Assembly: GCA_964057225.1 (NCBI GenBank)
Contig: OZ059899.1
Location: forward strand, 11,036,001 to 11,100,000
Origin: Auanema rhodensis
Taxonomy: Eukaryota > Animalia > Nematoda
Direction: 5' to 3'
Length of the DNA stretch: 64,000 nt
Each line of letters starts with the position of its first letter. Position 1 is the first letter of the stretch. This document shows, in pieces, positions 14,720 through 62,900 of the stretch. A model generated the notes under the pieces. The model made no database searches and was not told the DNA's origin. It was given only the letters and a program-made list of their open reading frames with translations. Position numbers and translations under genes: made by a program.

Positions 14720-15182
14720 TACGAAAGTACGAAATAACAAAGCGCTGATTATAGGAAACGTGAATGAATGCAGATATTCTCAATTCCGATTCATTAACTA
14801 GATCGTGGTCAGCATTTTACAACATTGATAAAATAGAAACTGAGAAAAATACATCAACAAATGACACTATCAACTTGGTTTTTTGAACAGCTTTTTTATA
14901 TTTCTTTTTTCACTATGAGAGAACTTATATTTATTGCTTTTTCAAAATTTTCCATTTTTAACATTATACATCTTGACTATCACACATTGAGAACAACAGT
15001 TGGCAATGTTGGTTGTCACGTCATATTTCATGCAGTTAGATTTTCAGACACATTAATACCTTTGACCATTCTTCTTATGAGTTTTGTAACGATAGATCGT
15101 AATAGGAAATGAATTGCTATAATATGAAAAAATACAAGACATAGTCAACATTGATTTCTTCAAATAGTATCATGTTTGCTTG

Positions 15183-15563
15183 TGTCACATCTGCAAGCAC
15201 ATGGTAAACATGTGCGCGCTATTCAAATAGCGGGAGCCTGAACAATCCCCGCCCACAACATGGGACACACATGGCACTCTTGCTTCTGGCCTAACCCAGA
15301 TAGGTTGTCTTATAGCCATGTGAGTCTCATCTCTATATCATCTATATATATACTCTATTTAATACTTTATCATATCTCTTTATATTCTTTCTTAATGTAA
15401 TTCTTATATTGTATTTTCTTGTTATCTGATAATGAATCCTTTTCTCTTTGAGTATTTGTCTTAATAAGGAAATCGGAGCGTTCGGGTCTGCCTACCTAAG
15501 GAACAAGGTAGAAGTACATATATCTTCCGACCATGAAAAGACGGGAAGAAACAATATGTAACG
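15183..15563 (+). repeat. 5' LTR (381 bp)
   Basis: TGTCACAT...ATGTAACG; direct repeat of 17499-17879. Confidence 0.95.
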
Positions 15564-15576
15564 TGGAGGTTCCACC
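15564..15576 (+). promoter_or_regulatory. Primer binding site, tRNA-Gln
   Basis: TGGAGGTTCCACC is complementary to GGTGGAACCT-CCA, the 3' end of metazoan tRNA-Gln. Confidence 0.8.
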
Positions 15577-17498
15577 TTGCTTACTCTACTGTTAATTTAT
15601 TGACAGCAAGTTTACGAGACTTTTGGACTTAATTACCCAACAGTGAGGAGTAACCGAGCCGTGCACCATGATTTCCCCAAAAATTATTTTGGCTACCACT
15701 TCTCCTCCGCTCAACGAAAACTGGGAGGTGTCTGAGACGTTTGGGGAAACTATCAGACAATAGTTTTGACGAGCGTTACCTTTTTGTTATGCACGCGCGT
15801 GCTATTTTGATTCATTACTTTATGATGTGAATGTCCAGTGTGGCAACAGAGCTCACTTTTTAGCTGAGTTGTTTGGAAGCTGGAGGCTGTTGGGATAATT
15901 TTATTTACGATTTTTTGATTTTGATTCACATCCAAGGGTTCATCAGGGTTCTACTCCTGTTAACTCTTTTCTTATTAGTTCAGAGATAATAAGAATATTT
16001 AAATTCCTACCCACCCAAGTCCACTCTACGTCTGCCAACGTTTCCTTTTTCCTATATTATTGACAGATTACTGAATTTGAATTCCTATATCAATCTTAAA
16101 TTACCTTCTAAATCTTTTGAAATTAAATTAAAAATTATCTTATTTAAGATTTATTTTGAAATTCTTTCTACAAATCTTAATAAACTTTATAAAATTGAAC
16201 TTAATATACGAGATGAGACATTTTTGTTTACTTTAAGCTTACTCACATTCAAATAGTTGGCCCACGCGTACCAGCTGTTCGGCATGTGTAGTCAATAACA
16301 GCTGTTAAAATTCAAAAGTTTTCAAACAGGCTTAAGGCACCATCTGTGATTCCTAATTTGTCTCTAAGCTGACATTAGTGATTATAATATTCAAATATCA
16401 CGACAGACGGTCAATGGTTGTTTACCATAAGCGCTAACATCTGGTGTCGTGACACATGGCTGGAGGCGGAGCTTGAAGCTTCAACGATCCTCCTTCATCA
16501 GACGCCATTGTCACAAACGTTTTTACTGGAGTCTAGTTGCTTCCAGTACGCGCTCTTATATTCATCTAACTGTATTCACCAGCCACCATGTCGGACTCGG
16601 ACATCAGCGAGGACAACAAAGATTAGGAACAAGGATCACCAGAGCCATACCTTTTGTATGTCACACAACAACAAAGAAGAATGAACAACGGTTAATGACT
16701 TAGTTATGATAAAAGTGAATTCTACACGAAACAAACTAACACCTTCATTCGAAGGGCCTTATTTAGTTACAGCAGTTCAAAGATCTTTCGTCGTGGTTCA
16801 AACAGATAAAGGAAAAAGCAGAAGAGTACACAAGGACTTCGTCAAACCTTACCAACGGACAACATCTATTCCGGTTATCACAATTTCTTGAAGGTAGTTT
16901 TTTTTTAACAAAATCAAATTGTTGAAATTTTTCTTATTTTATTTTGTGCCATTTCTAATTGTAACACTTCTTTGTTGTTGATTGATTTTCTCTGAGAAGT
17001 CTGCTATTGTTTTACAAGGTTTTGTTTTATTACTCCAACTCTCATTGAGTAGATTTTTTTTTCAACATTCTCTTGTGAATCATGCTATTTTTTATGCTTA
17101 ATCATTACTTGTATTCACCTTATGGACATTAGTCATACGGGTTAAACGAGTTTTCATTTTTTTGTACAAAACGAGCTCGACCTATTCTCAGGGTAACACC
17201 GTACCTGTACAACTCAAGAAAATGAACGACTATATCACAGTCGAATGGTTTAGAAGCAAAGCTCTCGTTTGCAAGCATTTCACTACTCAAGTGAATGAAA
17301 TAGAATCTACTCGATACTACATTTCGAATTCAACAAACTTGAAGAGACAATAGCTAAACTTTCAAATCGTATTGTATACATTTTTTTTTTTTATCCACTA
17401 CACCATGATTTTTTTTTTCCAACATCCAACTATCTTAAAAAGTGAATTAATTTATTTTGTTTTTGAACGAGGACGTTCAACTTTTTAAGGTGGGGGGA

Positions 17499-17879
17499 TG
17501 TCACATCTGCAAGCACATGGTAAACATGTGCGCGCTATTCAAATAGCGGGAGCCTGAACAATCCCCGCCCACAACATGGGACACACATGGCACTCTTGCT
17601 TCTGGCCTAACCCAGATAGGTTGTCTTATAGCCATGTGAGTCTCATCTCTATATCATCTATATATATACTCTATTTAATACTTTATCATATCTCTTTATA
17701 TTCTTTCTTAATGTAATTCTTATATTGTATTTTCTTGTTATCTGATAATGAATCCTTTTCTCTTTGAGTATTTGTCTTAATAAGGAAATCGGAGCGTTCG
17801 GGTCTGCCTACCTAAGGAACAAGGTAGAAGTACATATATCTTCCGACCATGAAAAGACGGGAAGAAACAATATGTAACG
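17499..17879 (+). repeat. 3' LTR (381 bp)
   Basis: Preceded by polypurine tract AAGGTGGGGGGA. Confidence 0.95.
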
Positions 17880-18013
17880 CTTGTTATTCAATTAGAACAC
17901 TTATTTTTTGATTGTTTTCTTGAAATATTCTTTTTTTTTCTTTAACAAAGTTATGACTGAGATCAAAATTTGAACTTACTTTTGAACAATTAAACAGAAA
18001 TTTTAAAAATATT

Positions 18014-30095: not shown

Positions 30096-30476
30096 TGTCA
30101 CATCTGCAAGCACATGGTAAACATGTGCGCGCTATTCAAATAGCGGGAGCCTGAACAAGCCCCGCCTACAACATGGGACACACATGGCACTCTTGCTTCT
30201 GGCCTAACCCAGATAGGTTGTCTTATAGTCATGTGAGTCTCATCTCTATATCATCTATATATATACTCTATTTAATACTTTATCATATCTCTTTATATTC
30301 TTTCTTAATGTAATTCTTATATTGTATTTTCTTGTTATCTGATAATGAATCCTTTTCTCTTTGAGTATTTGTCTTAATAAGGAAATCGGAGCGTTCGGGT
30401 CTGCCTACCTAAGGAACAAGGTAGAAGTACATATATCTTCCGACCATGAAAAGACGGGAAGAAACAATATGTAACG
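30096..30476 (+). repeat. 5' LTR (381 bp)
   Basis: Direct repeat of 39636-40016 with 7 mismatches. Confidence 0.95.
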
Positions 30477-30489
30477 TGGAGGTTCCACC
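30477..30489 (+). promoter_or_regulatory. Primer binding site, tRNA-Gln
   Basis: TGGAGGTTCCACC immediately after the LTR. Confidence 0.8.
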
Positions 30490-31500
30490 TTGCTTACTCT
30501 ACTGTTAATTTATTGACAGCAAGTTTACGAGACTTTTGGACTTAATTACCCAACAGTGAGGAGTAACCGAGCCGTGCACCATGATTTCCCCAAAAATTAT
30601 TTTGGCTACCACTTCTCCTCCGCTCAACGAAAACTGGGAGGTGTCTGAGACGTTTGGGGAAACTATCAGACAATAGTTTTGACGAGCGTTACCTTTTTTT
30701 TATGCACGCGCGTGCTATTTTGATTCATTACTTTATGATGTGAATGTCCAGTGTGGCAACAGAGCTCACTTTTTAGCTGAGTTGTTTGGAAGCTGGAGGC
30801 TGTTGGGATAATTTTATTTACGATTTTTTGATTTTGATTCACATCCAAGGGTTCATCAGGGTTCTACTCCTGTTAACTCTTTTCTTATTAGTTCAGAGAT
30901 AATAAGAATATTTAAATTCCTACCCACCCAAGTCCACTCTACGTCTGCCAACGTTTCCTTTTTCCTATATTATTGACAGATTACTGAATTTAAATTCCTA
31001 TATCAATCTTAAATTACCTTCTAAATCTTTTGAAATTAAATTAAAAATTATCTTAATTAAGATTTATTTTGAAATTCTTTCTACAAATCTTAATAAACTT
31101 TATAAAATTGAACTTAATATACGAGATGAGACATTTTTGTTTACTTTAAGCTTACTCACATTCAAATAGTTGGCTCACGCGTACCAGCTGTTCGGCATGT
31201 GTAGTCAATAACAGCTGTTAAAATTCAAAAGTTTTCAAACAGGCTTAAGGCACCATCTGTGATTCCTTATTTGTCTCTAAGCTGACATAAGTGATTATAA
31301 TATTCAAATATCACGACAGACGGTCAATGGTTGTTTACCATAAGCGCTAACATCTGGTGTCGTGACACATGGCTGGAGGCGGAGCTTGAAGCTTCAACGA
31401 TCCTCCTTCATCAGACGCCATTGTCACAAACGTTTTTACTGGAGTCTAGTTGCTTCCAGTACGCGCTCTTATATTCATCTAACTGTATTCACCAGCCACC

Positions 31501-32520
31501 CTGTCGGACTCGGACATCAGCGAGGAAAACAAAGATCAGGAACAAGGATCACCAGAGGTACGCCAAGTTTTTGAATTTAATTCTAAAAACTTAAATACTC
31601 CATCCACCTACCTCTCTCCTTTTGAATTTTTGAGAGAAGAAGGTGATTCCTCTTCTTCTTCTCATTCTTCTTCTCTAACAATTAGAACGAGAAGTAAAAG
31701 CAGAAAGGCCATCACTGAGGAAACACCTCGGGCACCTACTACAGTACGAAATAGATCACCAAGTCGGTGGGCCGCTGCTATAACTAAAGCTTTTGAAAGA
31801 AAAATGACTCCTACCTCTCCATCTCCTAATTCTAATGTTGCTCCACCCTCTAGAAATATGGCAACTATTTTAAATTGCCATCTCTGTCCCAGGTATGACG
31901 GCTCTCGTAGCTTTCGTTCTTTTGTTGAATCTTTAAATAGATTTTTTAATGTTATGAATCTAAGCTTACCTGAGAGACTATTAATTTTGCCTCTTCTTTT
32001 GGAATCAAATGAAACAGCTCTCTCCTTGTATAATAGTATTCCTAGTGGCATAAGAACTAATGGCCCATGGATTGTTTTGATGGATCAGCTCACTGAGCTT
32101 TTAGCGCCTAAAACAGATAAAAATTTCACCATAGCGCTTATTCATCGAGTACAACAAGGAGATAAATCTGTTCTTGATTTTAGTATGGAATTAGAGAGAA
32201 TGGCAAGCACCATAATGTCACCAATGGATCCCGAGCGGGAACCAATGTTGAAAACGGCATTTTTAAATGGTTTAAAAGAGGAACTGGGTATTGCGGTTTT
32301 AACTAAAAACCCCGCCACTTATGAACAAGCTAAGAAATTAGCTAGGTTTGAAGAAGGCGTTCGGAATAGCTTCATGAAAAGAAATGAAGACACCAGCACC
32401 TTGAAGGAGCTCATAAATGCTTTACAACATAAATTAAGCTTTAGTGAAGAAAGAGAAAGAAGTAGGAATAATAATAATAATAAAAATTATAAAAATAATA
32501 AAAATAATAAAAAAAAATAA
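31501..32520 (+). CDS. gag: Gag (capsid domain); continues after a +1 shift into the N/R-rich region 32520-32776
   Basis: Retrotransposon CA motifs PRYDGS..F..F, W..LMDQL, MHR-like QQGDKSVLDF; frame is open from 31501, where this copy has GCCACC-CTG and the sister copy GCCACC-ATG (16588). Confidence 0.85.
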   Translation: MSDSDISEENKDQEQGSPEVRQVFEFNSKNLNTPSTYLSPFEFLREEGDSSSSSHSSSLTIRTRSKSRKAITEETPRAPTTVRNRSPSRWAAAITKAFERKMTPTSPSPNSNVAPPSRNMATILNCHLCPRYDGSRSFRSFVESLNRFFNVMNLSLPERLLILPLLLESNETALSLYNSIPSGIRTNGPWIVLMDQLTELLAPKTDKNFTIALIHRVQQGDKSVLDFSMELERMASTIMSPMDPEREPMLKTAFLNGLKEELGIAVLTKNPATYEQAKKLARFEEGVRNSFMKRNEDTSTLKELINALQHKLSFSEERERSRNNNNNKNYKNNKNNKKK

Positions 32521-33445
32521 TAACTGGACTCAGCACAATAATGGCTCTAATGATTATGAGCGAGAGAGAGAGCGACCTTCTGCCGTACGTTATAAGAATA
32601 ATAACTCGCAGAACGGGAATATGAATAGGCGTCCTAACCCGGGAAACCGCCCATTTGCCAATGGCAGAAATGCCAATAGCTCGTCTTGGAACCCTAGGCC
32701 TAGTTCCCCAAGAAGACAAAGACCATCAGCCAATGGGAATGGTAACTCAAGGGTATACAGCGTAGCGACCCCATTCATGCCACCGGTCACGTTGTGCCTG
32801 ACTTTATTGGCACTCTCATGCCTTCCCTTTGGGTCGGCAAAATATCAGATTTGCGCTCAATCTGAAGGGGGTATATTAGTAACACCTCCTGTGGTCACAG
32901 GCTGCCATAAGGCAGAAATTGAAAAGGCTCACAGTGTTGAGGTAGAAATATATCTACCAAAGGCTGAGATAGAGTCATGGGAAGCATGGAAATGCTATGT
33001 GAAAAAGTATAAAAGCTGTGTGAGAGATTTCATGTTTTTGAGAGATCGTAACACCACATTCTCTCATATTGAAACAGTAGATAAGAAAGATTGTGTTCGA
33101 GCACATAGAAATCGTATGTGGAATGATAAAATCATGAATGCCCAACAGCATTCAGTTTTTGAAACACCATTAAACGAGCATAATCCAACTCGCTCTTGGT
33201 CCACTGAAGAATGTGTAGAAATTGAACAATTTGTATTGAAGCGAGGGATAATAACTAGATTGAAAGAAGATCACATTGTATCAGACTTATTTATAAATAC
33301 TGATAATTGTAAAGGAAATGAAGGGTTTTGTGCAACTGGTGAAGGTGCAGTTATCTGGCAACCACCTATCCCATCAGTTGTCTGTCACTATCAAAAACTT
33401 GGCCCCTTCTCCGCCATTACCTCAAAAACATCGCTCTTTCAGTGA
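32444..33445 (+). CDS. Gag C-terminal Asn/Arg-rich region + internal signal sequence + N-terminal part of envelope glycoprotein (frameshifted segment)
   Basis: NRRPNPGNRP basic low-complexity tract, hydrophobic TLCLTLLALSCLPFGSA, then a Cys-rich ectodomain with N-glycosylation sequon. Confidence 0.8.
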   Translation: MKKEKEVGIIIIIKIIKIIKIIKKNNNWTQHNNGSNDYERERERPSAVRYKNNNSQNGNMNRRPNPGNRPFANGRNANSSSWNPRPSSPRRQRPSANGNGNSRVYSVATPFMPPVTLCLTLLALSCLPFGSAKYQICAQSEGGILVTPPVVTGCHKAEIEKAHSVEVEIYLPKAEIESWEAWKCYVKKYKSCVRDFMFLRDRNTTFSHIETVDKKDCVRAHRNRMWNDKIMNAQQHSVFETPLNEHNPTRSWSTEECVEIEQFVLKRGIITRLKEDHIVSDLFINTDNCKGNEGFCATGEGAVIWQPPIPSVVCHYQKLGPFSAITSKTSLFQ

Positions 33446-35439
33446 TGATTATCTTTTTGTTAATGCGAAATCCCAACCATATGCGTTTCCATTTCTAAGA
33501 CCTACTTTCATTTTTGGATCTGCATCTATCACTAAGTTTTACGCAAAATATATGAGATATGCAGCTACATCATCTTATGAGAGTTTGCTCCAATTCGCGA
33601 TAGATAATCCACTGTTCATTGACACAATTGTTAGTTTAGGATTGACAAAAGATCACATAACTAACTGGGCAAAGTCTAATAATTTCAAAGATCCCAATCT
33701 TTTGATTTTACAATGTATGGGTATAGAGGAAATTAAACTGGCTACTAGACAGGTGATTAATAGCATGAAATTGGATGATCTTATCACTCAAGTAGCTCGT
33801 CGTATAGAAGTTCCTCGGTTAAAAAGATCGTTGATGAAATCTACAACATCCATAGAAGACTTCTTTCGAGGAATGGCTCACGCAGTAGTATATCAAGCCA
33901 CAATTCTTGATGGTACACAAACAGTTCCATCAATCGAACAGTTGGCCAGAGCCTTATATCCATCTATATTAGCACGCAGTGGAAATATGAATCAATCTGA
34001 AATTATTGCAACTGCTCAAGGCATGTTATTCATGATCCAACAACAATCGGGAAAAGAACAAATATCTCGTGACATGCAAGTCAGTCGACAACAAAAAGCT
34101 GATGCTACTGTTAGAAACAACCAAGAGCAAGATTTAGCAATTATATCCAAGCTGCCTGACTATCACAACCTTTATACAAAGAATAGTACAGCATATTATG
34201 GATTTCCTCCACAGTCCATCGAATACCCACAGGAAAATCCTAAATTCAATAAAACAGAAGTTTTAGAATTCATAAGTTGGGTTAAAACTCAAATCACAAC
34301 TGATAAAAATATGGTACAGCATACTACTGTAACCCCAATAACTGCCACCAAAACTACAATTCGTAGTTTAACAACTCCTACCCCTAATGCGTACGAGAGA
34401 GGTCGAGAGTTGTATGTAGCAGAAGTATATGACAATGTTCTCCACAAATCAGAGCATAAAACTAAAACGATAATAGATAATAAGTTGAATTATGGGTTTG
34501 AGAAAGCGCGTCTCTCCATAATTGACGAATTTCATCAACAGTTTCATACCATCTGTAAATCTCAAATGGAAACTGTAAAAAGCTGGCAAGCTATATTACG
34601 TATACATCCTACAATAGGAGTAAGAGCTATGCTTCAGCGGGATGATATCGTTGCCCGATTTGTTGGAAGAAATGTTTTAAAAATAACAACTTGTCAGGAA
34701 ATAGAACCACATTTCATTTATCGTAATCATTCTTACAATGATAAATGTTATGCAGAGACCCCTGTTTTAACACACGATAAACAATTATTCTTTGCTCCTA
34801 TCGATAGCTACGATTTGAGCACTGAAGGACATGAGATCAATTGTGAACACAAAGAGACAGAGATTTGGTATGAAAATGGAACATGGAGAGATTATAAAGG
34901 TGACACACATAAAGTAGATAGTATTCATTCAGAAAAACATGATCATTATGCTGAATTGAGTAAACTTCGATTCACAGGGCGGAATTTGTTTGAAAATTCG
35001 ACTGAAAAATCCTTAGCCCTATCTATTGGATTAACTTATGGTTATAGTTTATCTACTTCACCTCACCATGATCTTCTCCGCGTAATTTCTCGTTCACGTG
35101 ATTGGCCTCAAATTTCCTCTTTCATCTTGAAAGGAAGTAAACTTATAAGAGATGCCAGGAAAATTGTTTTCTCCAATTGGGATCTGTTCATTGACTTTTG
35201 TATAGGTTCAATTGAACGAACACTCATTACCATCGGTTGTATAACTCTGATATTATGTCTAATGATAGCATTATATTTCACTATAAAATGTTATCTCTCC
35301 CCTACTTCTATGTTAAAAATAAACCATATCATGTTGAGCCCAACAGCTCCACCACTTGAGGGAGATGAGATTCATGAAACAGTTAGTGATGAATTGATGC
35401 GGAGCTATTTTCCCACCATCATAACTTACATTCCTTTAG
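32777..35439 (+). CDS. env: Envelope glycoprotein, class III / herpesvirus gB-like (one frameshift near 33440)
   Basis: Signal-like peptide; RLKR furin site (33816-33827); Thr-rich tract; gB-like block IC..Q......ILRIHPTIGVRAMLQRDDIVARFVG..LKITTC...KCYAETPV; TM segment about 35220-35290; short tail with PTAP. Confidence 0.75.
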
Positions 35440-38400
35440 CCATACCTTTTGTATGTCACACAACAACAAAGAAAAATGGACACTTGTTACCGTTTGTTCA
35501 TATTGACATTGAAGGTAGAGGACTGTTAGCATTATGGGATTCTGGAGCTACTGTCTCATATATTCCGTTCTCCACATTGGCATATATTGGAAGACAATAT
35601 TTTACAAAATATTCTAAATCTGCATCCACTGCAAATGGATCAGAGTTTCGCTTTGTGGGAAAATGCAAGTTAGATGTGGGTATAGCAGGTTACCAAGTGG
35701 AACACGAATTTTTAATATCTGAAGACAATGACTGTCCAGGACAAATGTTACTTGGTACTGATTTTATGCGTACGTTGGAAGAAAGAGAGATATTTACTAC
35801 ATTAAAACTATGTAAAGGAAAGTTGATTGTTGGTAATATGGAAACACCCTTAGTAAAACCTGGTTGTTTTGCATATAAAACCACAACTAAAACAGTAAAT
35901 ATCATAAGTTTGTCCACAGTAACAGTTCCACCACATAGTACCTCCCACATATCTTTGCAAACAGGACCAGAATTAGATTTTGATCAATATGCTCTTTTAA
36001 AATCTAGCACAGGTCCTATCTCAATTCCAGATGCCGCCATAGGACCTTTTCCTATTACTATGGTAGTATCAAACAATTCTTCAAAGCCAATTAAAATTAA
36101 TAAAAATGACCACATTGGTTCAGGACTTATAGCATCTAAAGAAATTATGAACGATTATGTTCCACCTGAAGCTGATTGGGAAGATAAGTTACCAACTTTT
36201 CCTCAGCATCTTTTGGATGATTTGAACTTCAATTCTTGCACTCTGTCTCATAAAATGAAGAAAAATCTGATCACAATCATTAAGGAAAACCAAACGGCAT
36301 TTTTCAACCATGATCATAATATTGGTCTCTTTTGCGGACCAGTTGAACATGCCATTCCTATAAGATCTGATATGGATTTTCCAAAAAGTAGATCTTACAG
36401 AGTACCATTGGGTAAGCAAGAAGAAGTAGAACGGCAAGTGAAAGAAATGTTGTCGCAAGGTATAATCGAAAATTCGACGGCTACTTTCACTAGTCCGGTT
36501 GTTCTTGTGAAAAAGAAAGATAATTCTTTCCGGTTCGTTACTGACTTTAGAGCATTGAATAGTGTTACTAAGAAACAAACATACAGCATCCCACACATTC
36601 CTGATATCATAGACTTAGCGGCTGGAGCTCAGTTCTTTTCGAATTTTGATCTCATTTCTGGTTTCTTCCAAATACCGTTGAAACGCTCAGATAGATACTT
36701 AACTGCTTTTACCACTCCATCAGGTACCTATCAGTATTGCCGAATGCCTATGGGATTGTGTGGAGCGCCACACACTTTTCAATCCGCAGTACGATATTTG
36801 CAATCTCTTGTTAGATGCAAACTGTTTGTATATCTAGATGATTTGCTAATAATTTCGAACTCAGCTGAAGAACATTTAAGAGATATACAAGAAGTGCTGA
36901 AAAAGGTCACTGAACTAGGGTTAAAAATTAAGTTATCTAAATGTTGCTTTGCAGCCACTGAAGTAAAGTTTTTGGGTTTTGTAATAGGTAGAAATGGTGT
37001 TAAACCAGATCCTGCTAAGATAGAGGCTGTTTCCGAATTTCCAAATCCAAGTACAGTTACGGCTGTTAGATCCTTTCTAGGTATGACTAACTATTTTCGA
37101 CGGTTTATTCAAAATTATGCCGAAATAGCGGAGCCATTGTATAAGTTAACACATAAGGATACTCCTTTTGAGTGGAAATCGGAACATGCAGACGCATTTA
37201 AAACTTTAAAAACATTACTGTGTACTGCCCCTGTACTGAAACCTCCTAAAGCAGACCAACCTTTTGTTATAGAAAGTGATGGCAGTATGATCGCTGTGGG
37301 AGCAGTTTTATTGCAATCAGCAGAGAAAAATTCTCCATTACACCCGATTGCGTTCGCTAGTAGAAAGTTGACTCCAGCGGAACGGAAATATCCTCCTATT
37401 GAAGTTGAAGCACTCGGTTTAGTCTTTGCTCTTCAACAATTCCGTACCTATGTATTAGGAGTACCTACCACAGTTATCACAGATCACCGACCATTAACCA
37501 GTTTAATGTCGCGTAAAGATCTCATAGGTAGATTAGCCAAGTATCAACTAATGATACAAGATTTCAACATAAAGATTGAATATCGTCCTGGCAAATTAAA
37601 CAGTGTCTGTGATGCTCTCTCCAGGTATATAGGAAACGAAGCAAATGACAGTCGTCCTACTAAACCAAAGGACAAAGTAAAACCTGTTGATGCTTTTATT
37701 GCTCATATTACAACTATTTCTTCTATTGACCAACTAAATTGTGAAGAAATACGGAAAGTTCAAGCTGGAGTTCCCTGGATTCGCGAAGCACTTTCTCAAA
37801 TTAATAATGATAACTGTCCGGCTAATATATCAGACCGGTATGAAGAACGAGAAGGCATATTACATGCAAAACAAGCGAAAAATTATTTAAAACCATCTAT
37901 TATTTTGCCTCGAAACGACAAAATAACTGATGTTGTCATCAAATTTTTTCACGAAGATTCCAAAATTGGTGCACACCTAGGTATAAATAAAACTACTGAT
38001 GCGATTCGACGACGATTCTTTTGGACTAATATGGTTCCACAAATAACTGAATTTATTAATCGTTGTACAAAATGTGCAAGTAGGAAATCTAACCCACACC
38101 AATCGTATATTCAACCTATGGGAAGATTTGTTATACCCGAAAAGCCATTTGATCGTATTCATGTAGATATACTAGGTCCTTTACCTCGCACTAATGATGG
38201 ACATCGATACATCTTGAGTATTCAAGATGCTTTTAGTAAATGGGGAACAACTTGCCCATTAATAACACAAACGGCTACTGAAATCACAAAAGCGTTTGTA
38301 ATTAGATTTGTTTTCATATATGGACCACCAATGAGTATGATAACCGATAATGGTAGTAGCTTTTTGTCATCTGAATTTCAAGCTATGTGTAAACAATTTG

Positions 38401-39017
38401 GAATTAAACACACTACTACGCTACCATATCATAAAAATGCTAATGGACAAGTTGAGAGACTTCATAGAACTTTGGAAGAAGCTCTCTCTTCATTCGTGAA
38501 TGAACAACAAACTAACTGGGATATACACCTACCCAAAGTTATGTTTGCGATCAATACGTTACCAAACTCATCAACATCTATTAGTCCATATGTTGTATTA
38601 TTTGGTCGGGATGCAAGACTTCCTATTGACCATCAATTGCCTGGGAATAATCTTCAAACTGAAGAACCAGCCAATCCTACAGAAGATTTTGTCAATAGAT
38701 CGCTAATACAAAATGAAAGCACATCTAATATAGTAAAAGATAGAATTGAAACATGCACAAAGAAGAATGAACAACGGTACAATACACGAAATAGAACACA
38801 AAATAAAGAAATTCAGGTTAATGACTTAGTTATGATAAAAGTGAATTCTACTCGAAACAAACTAACACCTTCATTCGAAGGGCCTTATTTAGTTACAGCA
38901 GTTCAAAGATCTTTCGTCGTGGTTCAAACAGATAAAGGAAAAAGCAGAAGAGTACACAAGGACTTCGTCAAACCTTACCAACGAACAACATCTATTCCGG
39001 TTATCACAATTTCTTGA
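33318..39017 (+). CDS. pol: Env(C-terminal)-Pol polyprotein: gB-like ectodomain, TM, aspartic protease, RT, RNase H, integrase
   Basis: LWDSGA (35538), RFVTDFRALN, FDLISGFFQIP, MPMGL, YLDD (36831), ESDGS/EALG/TDHRPL RNase H, H-H-C-C zinc finger, D-D-E (HVDILGP, TDNGS, GQVER), FEGPY. Confidence 0.97.
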   Translation: MKGFVQLVKVQLSGNHLSHQLSVTIKNLAPSPPLPQKHRSFSDDYLFVNAKSQPYAFPFLRPTFIFGSASITKFYAKYMRYAATSSYESLLQFAIDNPLFIDTIVSLGLTKDHITNWAKSNNFKDPNLLILQCMGIEEIKLATRQVINSMKLDDLITQVARRIEVPRLKRSLMKSTTSIEDFFRGMAHAVVYQATILDGTQTVPSIEQLARALYPSILARSGNMNQSEIIATAQGMLFMIQQQSGKEQISRDMQVSRQQKADATVRNNQEQDLAIISKLPDYHNLYTKNSTAYYGFPPQSIEYPQENPKFNKTEVLEFISWVKTQITTDKNMVQHTTVTPITATKTTIRSLTTPTPNAYERGRELYVAEVYDNVLHKSEHKTKTIIDNKLNYGFEKARLSIIDEFHQQFHTICKSQMETVKSWQAILRIHPTIGVRAMLQRDDIVARFVGRNVLKITTCQEIEPHFIYRNHSYNDKCYAETPVLTHDKQLFFAPIDSYDLSTEGHEINCEHKETEIWYENGTWRDYKGDTHKVDSIHSEKHDHYAELSKLRFTGRNLFENSTEKSLALSIGLTYGYSLSTSPHHDLLRVISRSRDWPQISSFILKGSKLIRDARKIVFSNWDLFIDFCIGSIERTLITIGCITLILCLMIALYFTIKCYLSPTSMLKINHIMLSPTAPPLEGDEIHETVSDELMRSYFPTIITYIPLAIPFVCHTTTKKNGHLLPFVHIDIEGRGLLALWDSGATVSYIPFSTLAYIGRQYFTKYSKSASTANGSEFRFVGKCKLDVGIAGYQVEHEFLISEDNDCPGQMLLGTDFMRTLEEREIFTTLKLCKGKLIVGNMETPLVKPGCFAYKTTTKTVNIISLSTVTVPPHSTSHISLQTGPELDFDQYALLKSSTGPISIPDAAIGPFPITMVVSNNSSKPIKINKNDHIGSGLIASKEIMNDYVPPEADWEDKLPTFPQHLLDDLNFNSCTLSHKMKKNLITIIKENQTAFFNHDHNIGLFCGPVEHAIPIRSDMDFPKSRSYRVPLGKQEEVERQVKEMLSQGIIENSTATFTSPVVLVKKKDNSFRFVTDFRALNSVTKKQTYSIPHIPDIIDLAAGAQFFSNFDLISGFFQIPLKRSDRYLTAFTTPSGTYQYCRMPMGLCGAPHTFQSAVRYLQSLVRCKLFVYLDDLLIISNSAEEHLRDIQEVLKKVTELGLKIKLSKCCFAATEVKFLGFVIGRNGVKPDPAKIEAVSEFPNPSTVTAVRSFLGMTNYFRRFIQNYAEIAEPLYKLTHKDTPFEWKSEHADAFKTLKTLLCTAPVLKPPKADQPFVIESDGSMIAVGAVLLQSAEKNSPLHPIAFASRKLTPAERKYPPIEVEALGLVFALQQFRTYVLGVPTTVITDHRPLTSLMSRKDLIGRLAKYQLMIQDFNIKIEYRPGKLNSVCDALSRYIGNEANDSRPTKPKDKVKPVDAFIAHITTISSIDQLNCEEIRKVQAGVPWIREALSQINNDNCPANISDRYEEREGILHAKQAKNYLKPSIILPRNDKITDVVIKFFHEDSKIGAHLGINKTTDAIRRRFFWTNMVPQITEFINRCTKCASRKSNPHQSYIQPMGRFVIPEKPFDRIHVDILGPLPRTNDGHRYILSIQDAFSKWGTTCPLITQTATEITKAFVIRFVFIYGPPMSMITDNGSSFLSSEFQAMCKQFGIKHTTTLPYHKNANGQVERLHRTLEEALSSFVNEQQTNWDIHLPKVMFAINTLPNSSTSISPYVVLFGRDARLPIDHQLPGNNLQTEEPANPTEDFVNRSLIQNESTSNIVKDRIETCTKKNEQRYNTRNRTQNKEIQVNDLVMIKVNSTRNKLTPSFEGPYLVTAVQRSFVVVQTDKGKSRRVHKDFVKPYQRTTSIPVITIS

Positions 39018-39623
39018 AGGTAGTTTTTTTTTTAACAAAATCAAATTGTTGAAATTTTTTTTATTATTTTATTTTGTGCCATTTCTGATTGTACCACTTC
39101 TTTGTTGTTGATTGATTTTCTCTGAGAAGTCTGCTATTGTTTTACAAAAGTTTGTTTTATTACTCCAACTCTCATTGAGTAGATTTTTTTTTCAACATTC
39201 TCTTGTGAATTTTGCTATTTTTTTATGCTTAATCATTACTTGTATTCACCTTATGGACATTAGTCATACGGGTTAAACGAGTTTTCATTTTTTTGTACAG
39301 AACGGGCTCGACCTATTCTCAGGGTAACACCGTACCTGTACAACTCGAGAAAATGAACGACTATATCACAGTCGAATGGTTTAGAAGCAAAGCTCTCGTT
39401 TGCAAGCATTTCACTACTCAAGTGAATGGAATAGAATCTATTCGATACTACATTTTGAATTCAACAAACTTGAAGAGACAATAGCTAAACTTTCAAATCG
39501 TATTGTATACATTATTTTTTATCGACTACACCATGATTTTTTTTGTTATCTTTTTCCAACATCCAACTATCTTAAAAAGTGAATTAATTTATTTTGTTTT
39601 TGAACGAGGACGTTCAACTTTTT

Positions 39624-39635
39624 AAGGTGGGGGGA
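39624..39635 (+). promoter_or_regulatory. Polypurine tract
   Basis: AAGGTGGGGGGA directly before the 3' LTR. Confidence 0.85.
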
Positions 39636-40016
39636 TGTCACATCTGCAAGCACATGGTAAACATGTGCGCGCTATTCAAATAGCGGGAGCCTGAACAAGC
39701 CCCGCCTACAACATGGGACACACATGGCACTCTTGCTTCTGGCCTAACCCAGATAGGTTGTCTTATAGTCATGTGAGTCTCATCTCTATATCATCTATAT
39801 ATATACTCTATTTAATACTTTATTAGATCTCTTTATAATCTTTCTTAATGTAATTCTTATATTGTATTTTCTTGTTATCTGATAATGAATCCTTTTCTCT
39901 TTAAGTATTTGTCTTAATAAGGAAATCGGGGCGTTCGGGTCTGCCTACCTAAGGAACAAGGTAGAAGTACATATATCTTCCGACTATGAAAAGACGGGAA
40001 GAAACCATATGTAACG
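39636..40016 (+). repeat. 3' LTR (381 bp)
   Basis: TGTCACAT...ATGTAACG followed by TSD CCAC. Confidence 0.95.
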
Positions 40017-56014: not shown

Positions 56015-56506
56015 TACGAAAGTACGAAATAACAAAGCGCTGATTATAGGAAACGTGAATGAATGCAGATATTCTCAATTCCGATTCATTAACTAGATCG
56101 TGGTCAGCATTTTACAACATTGATAAAATAGAAACTGAGAAAAAAACATCAACAAATGACACTATTAACTTGGTTTTTTGAACAGCTTTTTTATATTTCT
56201 TTTTTCACTATGAGAGAACTTATATTTATTGCTTTTTCAAAATTTTCCATTTTTAACATAATACATCTTGACTATCACACATTGAGAACAACAGTTGGCA
56301 ATGTTGGTTGTCACGTCATATTTCATGCAGTTAGATTTTCAGACACATTAATACCTTTGACCATTCTTCTTATGAGTTTTGTAACGATAGATCGTAATAG
56401 GAAATGAATTGGTATAATATGAAAAAATACAAGACATAGTCAACATTGATTTCCCCAAATAGTATCAGTAGAGAGCCGTGCAAAATTTACTAACCACGCC
56501 CCCAAA

Positions 56507-56620
56507 CAGCTGTCAAAAACATACTTTTGGGGGGCGTCAGCTGCTAAAAACATACTTTTGGGGCGCGTCAGCTGTCAAAAACATATTTTTGAGCGTCAGC
56601 TGTTAAAATCATATTTTGGG
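56507..56620 (+). repeat. Subterminal ~30-bp repeats in the presumed TIR (about 4 copies)
   Basis: CAGCTG(T/C)(C/T)AAAAACATACTTTTGGGG(G/C)GCGT-like units. Confidence 0.8.
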
Positions 56621-57085
56621 ATCATGGTTCATGGATTCTCCTTTTTTAAATTTAAAAATCATGATTTAAAGCATGATTTTTTTTTAAATCAAATTTAAAT
56701 ATGCTTTTAAATGTATGTATATATTTTTAATTATTTTTAAATATATTAAGTAAAAATAAAAATCTTAATTTTAAATATTTAAATTATATTTAAATTTTAT
56801 ATATATAAATTATATTTAAACTTTAAATATTTAAATTATATTTAAATTTTATATATATAAATTTTATTTAAACTTTAAATTTTATATATAAATTATATTT
56901 AAATATTTAAATATTTAAATATGTAAATTTGTTTTTTAAATTTTATTTATTTATTAAATTTATTAATAATGTTTGTTTACTTGATTTGTTTATTTTTTAT
57001 TGTATTGTGTTTGTATTGTTTTTATTTTAAAGAACAGTAAAATTTTTGCATGTATATCGTTTTGTTCACCGTACTTGTTATGGGT

Positions 57086-57294
57086 AATTCAATGGAACAC
57101 ATATCGAAGGTTAATTCGATAAGAACGATATGAAATACAAAATTCAATGGAACACATATCGAAGGTTAATTCGATAAGAACGATATGAAATACAAAATTC
57201 AATGGAACACATATCGAAGGTTAATTCGATAAGAACGATATGAAATACCAAAATTTAATGGAACACATATCGAAAGTTAATTCGATAAGAACGA
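57086..57294 (+). repeat. 55-bp tandem repeat, about 3.8 copies
   Basis: AATTCAATGGAACACATATCGAAGGTTAATTCGATAAGAACGATATGAAATACAA at 57086, 57141, 57196 and about 57252. Confidence 0.9.
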
Positions 57295-57690
57295 CATTAA
57301 ATTATTAATTTTTGAAATTACAAATTGTTATTAATTATATTTATTCTAACAAGTAAAGGTTTCAAATTATAATAAAAGATTATTTTTAAACTTCATTTTA
57401 CTAATATAACAATACAATAACTAAATAGAGCACACATTGAAGGTAAATACAATAAGATTAACAAACAGTTGCGCTGACCTCAATGAAACGCATAAAGTTA
57501 ATTTAATAAGAACTAATAACAAAAATTAATCCGACGGGGACAATAAAAACAGATGTATTCAATAAGCTTATTTATTTTAAAGTTTATCGCAACTGCTAGT
57601 TTTGACAGCTGTACCCAAATCCATGTTACATAACAAATTACAATGCCAACAGCAATGTGTAGACTGATGTATTCATTATATCAAGGTACA

Positions 57691-60600
57691 ATGGCTGCTA
57701 ATAGGTTGTGTCTTTTTGATTATTTGTTTGTAAACTTTTTCTTTTTTTAGTTATAAACGTTTATGTGAAGAGCTAGGATTTGATTATGAAGAAATCAATC
57801 AGCTCAGGTAATTTAACAATATTTTGAATCTTTATATATATTTTGTTTTTTAGTAAACGTATAAAGTTTACCGAAGCTGGTGGGATCGAGCTCTGTGAGC
57901 CCACATCACCCACTTTTAACAGTGGGCCCTCATCATCAAGGGTTATTGAAGTAATAACCTTGGATGACAGTGATGAGTAAGCGATATTAAAAATTATAAC
58001 AATTAGTTTTTTCTTTTTAAGCGAATGGGATCCTGCTACCCCATCAACCAGTGGAGGACAAGTCGGATATGGAGCGGCATTCAACGATGTCTGTAAAATA
58101 GAGGTGCGATCTTTTATTTACATATCATTTCATAATATATCTTTTGAAACATGAAATTTTCTCTTGCTCCAATTGCATATTTTGAAAACATTTTGAAATT
58201 TATTTCTCTTTTTCAATTGCTCTCTCTCTCATCTTTACATTTCATCTCAATCTATATCTTTTTTCAAACAAATTGCAAGTATTTTGAAATTTACATATTC
58301 ATTCTTTTGAACAACATTCATTTTAAAATCTTTACATTTCATCTCACTATCTATCTATCTTTCCTCATCTATCTTTCTTTCAACCAATTTTGAATTCTTA
58401 CAAATTATAAATATTTCAAACATTTTGAACTAGTAAAATAATAAAACACAATCTTGACCTTTTCATTTATTTTTTAACATTAACAAATGTTTATAAAAGT
58501 TTTTTCAAAGTTGAAAAAAAAAAAAAAACTTTATATTTAAAAATCAAATGCCATTTATTTTTAAACATTAATAAAAATAATTTAAAGAAAAGTAAATTTA
58601 TAAAAAGTTATAAACAAAAATTATTTATATTTAAACTAAAAGCGTATAACCATTATAAAAAGTGTGTATTATAGTGGTCACACCGACGCATAAAACGAAC
58701 TGGTCGGTTCACCAACGTGGTCGTTAGATCGCTCACGTTCCCACATTTGGAAGCCATTGATGAGCCAATGCATGTTGTCATGCCGCGGCTATTTAATGAG
58801 TTTCTTGATCGGTGCCTTGCTGAAAGTGGTGTGCCAGATAAACAAAAAGCACTATTTTGTTTATCAATAGAGCACCCATCCTTTGAAAAGGGATCCATAT
58901 TTATGGATTTCCGTAGAAGGGAGCATTTGGATGGCGTTGCCATCATGAATGCCATCAGCAAGGTACAGCAATCAAAGCGAGAGGCTGTAATTAGCCAGGC
59001 AATGAACATTGAAATGTATGTGTTTGATGAGAGACCAGTGCAGCCAAGCCTGATGCCTGGTGAAGGTAGAGTTGGTTTCTATTTTGATGCCGAACTCAAG
59101 ATACCTGGCACAATTGAGAACACTGATACACATTGCCTGGCTAGAGCAGCAGTTGTGGGAATGTGGAGAGCCGATGAAGAGGCAGCAGAAGATGTTGTTG
59201 AGAAGCGGAGGATTCAAAATCTTCGTCGCAACTACATCTTGTTGCCAAATCAACCACATCATATCAATTTATTGAATAGGTGTGGTATTTCTGTACATTT
59301 ACCAAATTATAATTTGAACCATTTAAATATTATTGCAAGTTGTAATACAGACTATAAGTTTGTAGTATACGCTAGGCCACCTGGACAGCGTATGTACGCT
59401 ATTCAGCGTATCTTTAATGAAACGGCTAGCAAAGTGGTAACACTAGGCTACCGAAATAATCATTATGACTGTATTACAACTTGTAGTAGATCACAGATTT
59501 TTGATGGTATTATATGCCAACACTGTAAATTATCTTACAAAACAGTGTTGCATAGATGTAAAGCCAAGTGTAAGAAATGCCACACCTTAAAATGTAATTC
59601 GATGGAAAATGTGGTTGAGAGTAGCATAAGATGTGATAGTTGTAGAGTTTTGTTCAAAACTCGTCAATGCTTTGACAGGCATATTAGAAAAACATGTCGA
59701 ATGTTTAAGGTAATTTAAAAAATATATATAAAATTTTACAAGACTAAATTCAGACATGTGAAAACTGTGATCATTATCACAGAGTACGTGCTGATAGACC
59801 GCACAATTGCAATGAGAAATTTTGCAAAAAGTGTGGGCAAACAAAGCCTGAAGATCATTCTTGTTGTTGGGTACCACCTAACGACAAGAAGAAGGATCAG
59901 TTAAAAAAGAGGCAAGAAAAATACAAGGTTTGTATTTTACATCTTTACAAGTGTAATGCTTACTTGTTTAAGATTATATTCTATGACTTTGAAACGGTTG
60001 TGTTAAAAAACGGTACAAATGTTCATGAATATGCAGATGAACAATGGCCCAATATGGTTGTGTATAATAAATTTTGTGAAAGTTGTATAGATGCCAACTC
60101 ATGTGAAAAATGCACAACCAAGGAGGGCCATTTTGGGTACCAACAAGGTGATAGTGAATGGTCTGTAACAGATCGTTTCCTTGATTGGTTACTCAACTCT
60201 GTTGAGAATGATAATGCAATTTTGATTGCGCATAATGGTTCACGCTTTGACATACATTTCTTGGTGTCTAGGCTGATAAACCGTGGTATATATCCTGATC
60301 CAATTTTAAATGGGACCAAGATTATAAGCATGGTTGTCAAGCCTTTAAGAGGTCAAAAATTTAACCATTTATATTTTAAAGATAGTTATTTATTAGTGCC
60401 TTTACCCTTATCAGCGTTACCCAAGGCATTTGGTGTACCTGATATGAGTAAAGGACAGTTTCCTTACCTCTATAATCACCCAATAAATTATGGCAAAGTG
60501 TTGCCATCTTTACCACCAAAACAGTACTATTGTACTGCTAGAATGAAAGCAGAAGACCTAGCTTCATTCGATATTTGGTATGAAGAGCGTAATCAAAGAG

Positions 60601-62900
60601 CGTTTGATTTTGATGAAGAGCTTTTGGAATATTGTAGGACAGATGTCCGTATTTTAACCAACTGTATGAAAGTTTACATGAAGTTGGCAACCGCCACCAC
60701 TGGCTGGAACCCTGTCATACAATGTATGACATTTGCCAGTTTCTCTTTATTCCAGGCAAGTTTTTTAAAATACAAGCATTTTCAAAACTAGTATATTACA
60801 GTTGAAAATGAATCACATTAAAGAGAACCAAGTGGGTATTCTGCCCGAGACTGGTTATTATGCCGGTCAAAAGCAGAGTATAATAGCCATAAAGTATATA
60901 AAATGGCTAGAACAAGGATTGGGCCACCCATTAATGCATAAGCTTAATGGTGGCGAATTTGCAGTGAGAGTAGATGGCCATCGCTATCTACTCGATGCTT
61001 ATGACCCCGTTGCCAATCATGGCTATGAGGTGAGTAATTTGTAATAAATGTAAAAAATGCAAATTTTTGTAGATTAATGGTTGCATTTACCATGGTTGCC
61101 CCCAGTGCACCAACAAGAGCGCTATAGCACCAGGCAGAAATGGTGAAACAATGGAAGAGGTAATTGTGACATTTTTAATCATTTTAATTTTTAAAATTTA
61201 GGTTTATGATAAAACCATGAAAAGGCTTGAAGCAATTCAAAGCCAAGGCATTAGTGTTACCACAGTGTGGGAGCACGAAATTAATGCTCAAATTTCGGCC
61301 AATGAAGAAATGGCGAAATTTATGCGTGAAACAAATGTTGTTACACGCTTGGCACCTAGAGATGCCTTTACCGGTGGCCGCACCCAGACATATAAGCTTT
61401 TGGCACAAGCTTCGGATAGATACTCGCTCGAGTATGTGGACTTTTGTTCACTATATCCATATGTCACAGCCTTTGATGCCTATTACCCTGTAGGTAATCC
61501 CAAAGTTATTACTGAGGGTTTCAAAAGCTTTGAGACATGTTGCCCATACAAGGGGCTAGTAAAATGTGACGTGCTTGCACCCACAAATTTGCTGTACCCT
61601 GTATTAGGCACACGTATTGGCGGTAAACTTATTTTTACAAACTGCCGCACTTGTGCAGTCAAAAGTAAAAATGTAACATGTGAGCACCAGAATGATGTAA
61701 ATGCTAGAAAGCTGCATCTAACTGTGACACATGTTGAGCTCGAGTGTGCCATACAACGTGGCTATAAAGTGCTTAATGTGCATGAGGTGTGGCACTGGGA
61801 AGAATGGCAACAAGGCGGCCTGTTTAAAGAGTTTGTACAAAAGTACATAAAAATTAAACAAGAGGCGTCGGGCTGGCCAAAGCCAAACATGACAGAGGAA
61901 GAAAAGGTATGTTTTAACAAAAGTATCACATTAAATAGAATTTTACAGGTGATTTATCTCCAAGAGCACGAGGAGAACACTGGTGTTGCTCTGGAGAGCA
62001 ATAAAATTGAAAAGAATGCTGCCATGCGTAGCATTGCCAAACTGCAGCTAAATAGGTTTGTAAACTTTTTAAAACAATACATTACAAATTTGCTTATAGT
62101 GTCTGGGGTAAAATGGGTCAAAGACCAGATAAAGCCCAAACCAAGATTATTGGTGTTGAGGACCCAGAAATTGGTAGGATCATTACTGATCCTGCAAGGG
62201 AACTCACCGGGTTCAAAATTGTGGATAATGTTGCGTACTGCACAACAGTACCAGAGGATTCACATTTGGCGCCACCGCCTTTTACAAATGTAGCTATTGC
62301 GGCCTATACAACCGCTCATGCAAGGCTACTATTGTATAAGGCAATGGAGAAAATTGGAAAGAATTTGGTGTATACAGGTAATTTTATACTTGTATTCAAT
62401 TTAAACTTACATTATTTAGACACGGATTCTCTAATTTATCAAAGATGCCTAGATGAGCCAGATCCAATTGAGGATATGAAGGGTGAATGGTTAGGTAAAC
62501 TAACCTCTGAAATACCCGATGGTTGGTCAATGACCAAGTTTGTGTCACCAGCGGCAAAAGTTTATAGTTATAAACTTGTAAATGCAGCTGGTGATGTAAA
62601 ATATGTAACAAAGGCAAAGGGAGTGGTAAGTACGAGCTTTGACTTTTCAAATAATTTTATAATTTTCAGACGTTGGACCACACGGCAGCGTCAGTGGTAA
62701 ACTTTGAAAGTATGGAGCGACTGGTTCGCGGACTCGTTGTGGATGGAGAGAAATTGGTTTTAAAAACCAATACGACATTGTTAAAGAGGCAACTCGGTGC
62801 CATATCCACAATGGATATGACAAAAAGTACTAAAGTCGTAATGGATAAACTTTGTTATCTTCAAGATTATAGTACTTTACCCTACGGTTATTGTGAATAA
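57691..62900 (+). CDS. pPolB: Protein-primed family B DNA polymerase, 14 exons, about 1369 aa
   Basis: Introns 57705-57750, 57808-57853, 57977-58021, 58104-58674, 59710-59753, 59928-59972, 60756-60801 (GC-AG), 61030-61072, 61160-61201, 61907-61948, 62056-62099, 62378-62419, 62626-62669 give one open frame. Motifs: YDFET, AHNGSRFD, YCRTDV, GGRT, DFCSLYP, KLQLNSVWGK, YTDTDS, KAKG. The first four exons are less certain. Confidence 0.9.

Follow-up and report, generated by a model that had tools for sequence, protein, structure and literature searches.

In murine leukemia virus (MLV), the SD' RNA is packaged, reverse-transcribed and integrated as a splice-associated retroelement (SDARE), as described in PMC2925334; spliced proviruses exist also for human HERV-H and for mouse mammary tumor virus (MMTV), and spliced retroviral insertions have been called rare (PMC11998498). 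From nematodes, errantiviruses were described with the gene order GAG-ENV-POL and an envelope of glycoprotein B (gB) type, termed HSV/gB (PMC13524379), and RNA of the Caenorhabditis elegans element Cer1 was found to undergo splicing at sites of host type, an attcag acceptor among them (PMC3315495). The present analysis concerns a short element with long terminal repeats (LTRs), 2697 bp in length (positions 15183..17879), within a stretch of 64,000 nucleotides of the nematode Auanema rhodensis (assembly GCA_964057225.1, contig OZ059899.1, positions 11,036,001 to 11,100,000), which is called the window in the following. The element is a non-coding derivative with two LTRs; it probably originated when spliced RNA of a parental element was reverse-transcribed and integrated, and it would then likely have multiplied with Gag and Pol proteins supplied in trans. 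The integrated spliced retroviral genomes described in these papers come from mammals, i.e., MLV, HERV-H and MMTV (PMC2925334, PMC11998498), to which a case from the nematode GAG-ENV-POL elements would be added.

By its sequence features, the short element would appear to be an SDARE-like splice-associated retroelement. As in MLV, the donor is situated within gag, a spliced RNA with the packaging region retained would have been reverse-transcribed and integrated with two LTRs, and the product is a defective element, which in the case of SDARE is then transcribed directly (PMC2925334). SDARE belongs to a vertebrate gammaretrovirus, has lost part of gag and pol, and uses an env acceptor and a conserved donor (PMC2925334), whereas the short element is an invertebrate Ty3/gypsy derivative in an assembled genome, from which gag and env were removed, with a further deletion and a probable second splice, and it is apparently more numerous than its parent. 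HERV-H resembles it as a deleted family member with an unusual RNA made via a cryptic splice site, the spliced form of which is found again among the proviruses; it differs as a human endogenous retrovirus with four large deletions (PMC11998498), while the short element is of nematode GAG-ENV-POL type and has one deletion between two putative splices. MMTV proviruses without the rem intron are likewise genomic copies with exact intron removal. They have lost the intron of a functional gene, with no change of reading frame, and are complete apart from it (PMC11998498); the short element is non-coding. Gene order, a gB-like env, a tRNA-Gln primer-binding site (PBS) and two LTRs are shared with the elements catalogued in PMC13524379, which in the excerpted parts lists intact elements and not spliced derivatives, and the main text of which contains no occurrence of "splic". 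Cer1 is similar as a nematode gypsy polyprotein element whose RNA is spliced at host-type sites from the 5' region of gag (PMC3315495, PMC10309623). In contrast to the present elements, it is without a gB-type env between gag and pol, and its splice, at conserved sites, yields a needed export protein of 517 aa (PMC10309623); no integrated spliced copy is described in the excerpts of PMC3315495 and PMC10309623. A search of the literature, with poor coverage of subscription papers and therefore weak in this respect, revealed no nematode LTR element for which an integrated spliced copy has been reported. The mechanism as such is known already, and the short element would be a clean new case rather than a new principle, unless its first splice should turn out to be programmed.

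Anatomy of the short element

The two LTRs of the short element (15183..15563 and 17499..17879; all features are on the forward strand) are 381 bp long and identical at 381/381 positions, and they are flanked by a target site duplication (TSD) of 4 bp, CTTG, at 15179-15182 and 17880-17883. The 5' LTR is directly abutted by the PBS (15564..15575), the reverse complement of which is a tRNA-Gln 12-mer; the identical 12-mer is listed for two Caenorhabditis GAG-ENV-POL elements (PMC13524379, supplement 1), and Gln occurs in 8 of 13 excerpted nematode rows, of about 36, in the same supplement. A leader of ~1 kb follows (15576..16587), which is colinear with a long related copy in the window (30096..40016) and likely contains the packaging signal. 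Of gag, the first 19 codons are left (16588..16644), with the ATG in GCCACCATG context and a premature stop at codon 13. Beyond the internal junctions, a remnant of the integrase C-terminal SH3-like region (16691..16891; the matching stretch of the long copy scored E=0.006 with Pfam SH3_Tf2-1, below the cut-off) and a polypurine tract (17487..17498) were recognized. The whole of 15183-17879 is without any reading frame of at least 120 aa. Thus, the short element is defective, without usable Gag or Pol of its own, and its proteins must come in trans.

The insertion is young, since the divergence of its LTRs is below ~0.8% (rule of three, 0/381) and only one unit of the surrounding tandem array carries it; the empty site of the CTTG duplication is present 41 times in that array. 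Two whole LTRs, a short TSD and the lack of a poly(A) tail indicate integration by the route of LTR elements, and a processed copy made by a long interspersed nuclear element (LINE) is ruled out by the two whole LTRs together with the 4-bp TSD. Terminal-repeat retrotransposons in miniature (TRIM) are smaller than about 1 kb, and large retrotransposon derivatives (LARD) exceed about 4 kb and have an internal region unrelated to gag-pol. Neither class applies to the short copy, with its 2.7 kb and its colinearity with the parent throughout. LTRs usually have the termini TG...CA. In both elements of the window the termini are TG...CG (15183-15563, 17499-17879, 30096-30476 and 39636-40016), as fixed by the TSDs of both insertions.

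Three internal junctions and their origin

Relative to the long copy, the short copy differed by 12 mismatches over 1459 nt on the 5' side, and by 28 mismatches and 5 gaps over 1205 nt on the 3' side; the long copy is therefore a relative of the parent and not the direct parent. The remaining differences are three junctions. At junction 1 (16644..16645), exactly positions 31558..35439 of the long copy, from GT to AG, have been removed (3882 nt, comprising the gag body and all of env); one of the three equivalent placements is GT..AG, with a microhomology of 2 nt and no inserted letters. At junction 3 (16690..16691), which was seen only in the window, the removal comprises exactly 40 nt (38777..38816), again from GT to AG in one of four equivalent placements. 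These two account for only 3922 of the ~7.2 kb which are missing, and the piece of 46 nt between them is itself a join, composed of 26-34 nt following 35440 and 12-20 nt preceding 38776. This is junction 2 (16671..16678), a deletion of 3291 nt with the protease, reverse transcriptase (RT), RNase H and integrase core (35466..38756, sliding over 8 nt to 35474-38764). Its 8-nt microhomology is of a kind found in 0.024% of random deletions, and 0/9 placements were GT..AG, for which reason a splice was rejected. Owing to junction 2, the short copy is not a pure spliced retrocopy, in which every gap would be an intron.

An earlier note on this DNA had described the short copy as a retrotransposed spliced RNA, with identical LTRs, intact PBS, polypurine tract and TSD, recent integration, and proteins supplied in trans. 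The anatomy given above bears out the LTRs, PBS, polypurine tract and TSD, the recent integration and the need for proteins in trans, and both GT-AG removals were found at exactly the coordinates claimed, when the breakpoints were checked for placement at GT...AG. What stands of the retrotransposed RNA is a junction 1 which is very likely spliceosomal and an integration by the LTR route; the additional non-splice deletion of 3291 nt had been overlooked, and the two removals did not occur together in one spliced RNA, as copies with junctions 1 and 2 which keep the 40-nt segment exist (see below).

Random internal deletions could be placed at GT..AG in 1503 of 397,556 cases (0.38%), and the chance of at least two such junctions among three is P = 4e-5; when four other deletions from sequencing run X1 are counted, the value for at least two of seven is P = 3e-4. 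Splice sites were scored with a matrix derived from 10, then from 9 curated, candidate introns of neighboring genes in the window, which is a small and unverified set. The donor of junction 1 ranked 4-5 among 420 GT sites (top 1.2%), and the acceptor of junction 3 was also strong (rank 9-22 of 538). The 40-nt segment is near the size of the candidate host introns of the window (42-46 nt), and its last 8 nt are the same as those of the candidate intron ending at 59753. Both GT-AG junctions thus coincide with exact donor and acceptor sites of the parent, with a strong case for junction 1 and a weaker one for junction 3.

The element was found in 15 sequencing runs of four studies, four of which (X1, X12, X13 and X14) were compared with the long copy. 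The types of runs were guessed (X1, DNA; X12-X15, RNA; X12-X14 from one study, different from that of X1), and the data are contigs, which show presence, not absence, and from which rare variants are dropped. Junction 1 was present in three of the four runs (X1, X12 and X13; two studies), not in X14. In X1, the depth of the junction-1 contig was 225.4, plus 189.4 for a one-letter variant (two contigs summed); with the variant depth halved, the total of 320 is close to the 3' contig at 319.8. The gag and env contigs had depths of 127.3 and 112.3, which gives a ratio of junction 1 to unspliced interior of about 2.5-3.3, although contig depth is not copy number. Junction-1 copies have diversified, according to the one-letter variant. 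One contig of X13 holds junctions 1 and 2 and continues without gap through 38757-39032, including the 40-nt segment, and loose ends in X1 and X12 likewise run across the junction-3 donor. Copies with junctions 1 and 2 which retain the segment therefore exist; this is the common short form, and the copy in the window is one step further. Four further pol deletions were seen in X1 over 35551-38534 (depth 31-46), with 0/4 at GT..AG and inserted letters in 3/4. At least half of the sampled words of the element are held by 11 runs guessed to be DNA (five organism labels, three studies; 1/11 was compared), so the family is common to several strains or close species.

One joint in X1 leads back from 39693 to 31394. 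In X12-X14, the gag and env interior had little or no contig cover, and pol had a depth of ~1-7; this pattern lies near the assembly floor, would be mimicked by 3' bias, stems from one study and includes no contig from junction 1 to the protease, and it was not used as evidence.

These data suggest the following course of events. The host spliceosome would almost certainly have joined the strong donor, which follows the 19th gag codon, to an acceptor situated ~20 codons ahead of the protease domain, and thereby removed gag and env while the leader was kept. The 3.3 kb of pol were very probably lost at the 8-nt microhomology and not by a splice, most simply by a template switch of RT, although repair at the DNA level is possible; this loss could have come before or after the first splice. 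The short RNA would have been packaged through the retained leader, its reverse transcription primed by tRNA-Gln, and its integration carried out by the proteins of intact family members; anatomy and contig depth would suggest packaging and mobilization of the short form by proteins of the parent. With considerable confidence, judging from the contig depths of X1, the form with junctions 1 and 2 would have become a multi-copy family, exceeding the unspliced interior in abundance there. When such a copy was transcribed in a later cycle, the spliceosome would likely have removed a cryptic intron of 40 nt, and that RNA would have yielded the insertion in the window.

Several points weigh against this course of events. 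The scoring matrix comes from 9-10 unverified introns, the second set of which was curated after the first result; the acceptor of junction 1 is middling (rank 50-83 of 538), the donor of junction 3 is weak (rank 259-342 of 420), and a repeat of 3 nt is present at junction 3. That junction occurred in 0/4 runs compared, albeit as contigs from which rare variants are dropped. The contigs crossing junction 1 in X12 and X13 enter junction 2 and so derive from the short family, and the runs compared contain no read in which a full-length template had newly given rise to junction 1. Run X1 may be the source sample of the window itself, and the short form may have been amplified by duplication of DNA instead of retrotransposition.

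Some of these points would fit an explanation in which only junction 1 was spliced, and the 40 nt were lost by slippage of RT or DNA at the 3-nt repeat or are a local assembly error: the donor is weak, the microhomology of 3 nt is there, the junction is missing from the four runs compared, and junction 2 demonstrates that the element suffers deletions at microhomologies. Such an explanation is unlikely, since among deletions of 30-60 nt with at least 3 nt microhomology, GT..AG ends occurred in only 121 of 18,940 (0.64%), and the size of the segment as well as its acceptor fit host introns; removal of the 40 nt by splicing is thus considered probable. It could also be argued that all three junctions are deletions at the level of DNA or RT with coincidental GT-AG ends, as 5/7 internal junctions seen in the family are not GT-AG. 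This would be extremely improbable in view of the P value for at least two of seven, the rank of the junction-1 donor within the top 1.2% of GT sites, and the fact that junction 1 has only 2 nt of microhomology and no inserted letters.

If the short element arose by splicing, deletion and a second splice, transcripts of nematode GAG-ENV-POL elements probably come into contact with the host spliceosome, and packaging and integration are possible for such RNA. It is suggested that an envelope-carrying element could turn stepwise into a small parasite without coding capacity, with each step visible in the sequence, and the cis-acting sequences would be bounded to about 2.7 kb.

Probable splicing at junction 1, cryptic or programmed

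It should be considered whether junction 1 represents a programmed subgenomic splice of GAG-ENV-POL elements which skips gag and env. Two forms can be envisaged. One would be a Pol mRNA as in foamy viruses, freeing Pol from the membrane-anchored Env, for which a -1 frameshift or a non-AUG start would be needed. The other would be a CERV-like accessory mRNA, consisting of the 19 gag codons, an exon of 75 nt in another frame, and an integrase C-terminal exon from 38817; in that case, junction 2 would have removed the donor of the middle exon and so activated the weak donor at 38777. The short family would then be a fossil of a subgenomic RNA, now a defective-interfering parasite which outnumbers its parent and is still splicing, a scenario regarded as rather improbable.

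The position of the splice is suggestive of a Pol mRNA, as its donor follows 57 nt behind the gag ATG and its acceptor is located past the Env membrane segment and ahead of the protease; moreover, no stop interrupts the pol frame for 71 codons upstream, a stretch which spans junction 1. This open stretch is without an ATG, however, and translation from the gag start would enter a frame other than that of Pol: the donor is in phase 0 of gag, the acceptor in phase 1 of pol, and the frame which is entered stops 29 codons past the junction. An in-frame Pol mRNA starting at the gag ATG is therefore ruled out. Exon 1 of the long copy contains a slippery-like heptamer, as compared with the list of allowed patterns; this site is missing from the short copy, and a stable structure downstream is lacking there (z = +0.76). 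An accessory mRNA would be favored by a phase-0 GT 75 nt after the acceptor, which precedes the stop and falls within the deletion at junction 2. The junction-3 acceptor, which is strong, is likewise in phase 0 relative to pol, where the SH3-like region begins; in Cer1, the spliced accessory mRNA is also made up of exons in the gag frame, an exon in a different frame and a C-terminal one (PMC10309623). On the other hand, the donor of the 75-nt exon reaches only rank 132 of 420, and in only 8/18 relatives is the junction-3 acceptor compatible with the residue preceding it. The junction-1 acceptor lies in a conserved protein motif, and among 12 relatives with this motif (13 were examined, one of which lacks it) the aligned residue would allow this acceptor in only 4. 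The annotation of the relatives gives single Gag-Env-Pol polyproteins of 2212-2536 aa. A programmed splice is thus thought to be quite unlikely. Cryptic or default splicing without a useful protein product is most likely for junction 1, and more likely than a programmed role, because translation from the gag start would miss the frame of Pol and the acceptor is not conservable in 8/12 relatives.

The earlier note had regarded the short copy as a genomic record of the splice sites of the element. This is too strong, since junction 1 is out of frame and poorly conservable and the donor of the 40-nt segment is weak, so that both GT-AG sites may be cryptic. The assignment of the cis signals to the LTRs, the leader and the 3' region can be kept in conditional form: these parts must hold them if the short form replicates, as the depth data suggest. 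Exact coordinates are now provided for studies on the expression of Pol behind Env and, should junction 1 be programmed after all, it would be a first handle on Pol expression in elements with Pol behind a membrane-anchored Env.

The long copy, its relatives and the genomic setting

The long copy (30096..40016, 9921 bp, TSD CCAC) possesses two LTRs, a TSD, a tRNA PBS and a polypurine tract. Its coding region is damaged at the start of gag and by two frame breaks, which leaves three separate frames. The gag frame (31483..32520) scored E=2.6e-4 with Retrotrans_gag and E=0.004 with Ty3_capsid, both below the cut-off. A second frame (32438..33445), which aligns to the middle of nematode polyproteins, comprises the C-terminus of Gag, a stretch resembling a signal peptide, and the cysteine-rich N-terminal half of env. 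The third, the env-pol frame of 1906 codons (33297..39017), contains the gB-like C-terminal half of env, a hydrophobic membrane segment, protease, RT, RNase H and integrase; in this order, Pfam positions were 735-825 for protease, 1071-1230 for RT, 1293-1423 for RNase H and 1543-1712 for integrase. The gB-like half lies upstream of the protease and matched Glycoprotein_B with E=3e-4 (below the cut-off). All three frames align in order to single nematode Gag-Env-Pol polyproteins of 2212-2536 aa. When relatives were scanned for domains between gag and protease, Glycoprotein_B was detected in 5/5 and Monjiviricetes_fusion in 4/5. The best protein matches were from the rhabditid nematodes Caenorhabditis, Auanema and Diploscapter, with 49-53% identity over protease, RT and RNase H, and the closest proteins reached 52-53% in this region. 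Together with the candidate introns of 42-46 nt, these matches would suit a rhabditid host. As placed by its nearest neighbors by score, the long copy would be a damaged member of the nematode GAG-ENV-POL Ty3/gypsy errantivirus type with a gB-type env.

The LTRs of the long copy differ at 7 positions, all of them within LTR positions 189-371 (P about 0.009 if random), and in this region its 5' LTR matches the short copy. This suggests that the long copy may be a recombinant rather than old, and dating by its LTRs would therefore mislead.

A search with the env part alone in a set of 5.8 billion gave 0 matches among 3027 candidates, and a HMMER search of representatives gave 172 matches, without names or DNA. 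In a scan of metagenomes two loci were found with 32-33% identity, which are too distant for a comparison of splice sites; conservation of the latter was therefore assessed only via protein residues. A PTAP motif, which resembles a budding late domain, occurs at residue 682 of the env-pol frame (about 35340-35351), past the Env membrane segment and ahead of the protease. Of 56 relatives scanned, 7 had P(T/S)AP at a distance of 41-64 residues ahead of their protease motif. A hydrophobic motif at about 35410-35460, just ahead of the protease, was conserved in 12/13 close relatives examined and is possibly a cleavage site or a second membrane-associated segment.

Positions 1-56467 of the window are mostly a 667-bp tandem array with 66 tRNA-Ile(AAT) genes, the units of which are ~98-99% alike; shorter variant units of ~410 bp also occur. 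The array is broken by the two LTR elements, the short one in a spacer and the long one within a tRNA-Ile gene. Targeting at a fixed distance from tRNA genes is ruled out, with the long copy inside such a gene and the short copy 464 and 135 bp from its neighbors. Next to the array, a family-B DNA polymerase gene (DNA_pol_B_2) was found at 57700-62900, split by several candidate introns of 42-46 nt, one of which is possibly GC-AG (near 60758). Beside this gene, an AT-rich stretch and short tandem repeats lie at 56470-57300; gene and flanking repeats resemble the terminal part of a Maverick/Polinton which would have been inserted adjacent to the array.

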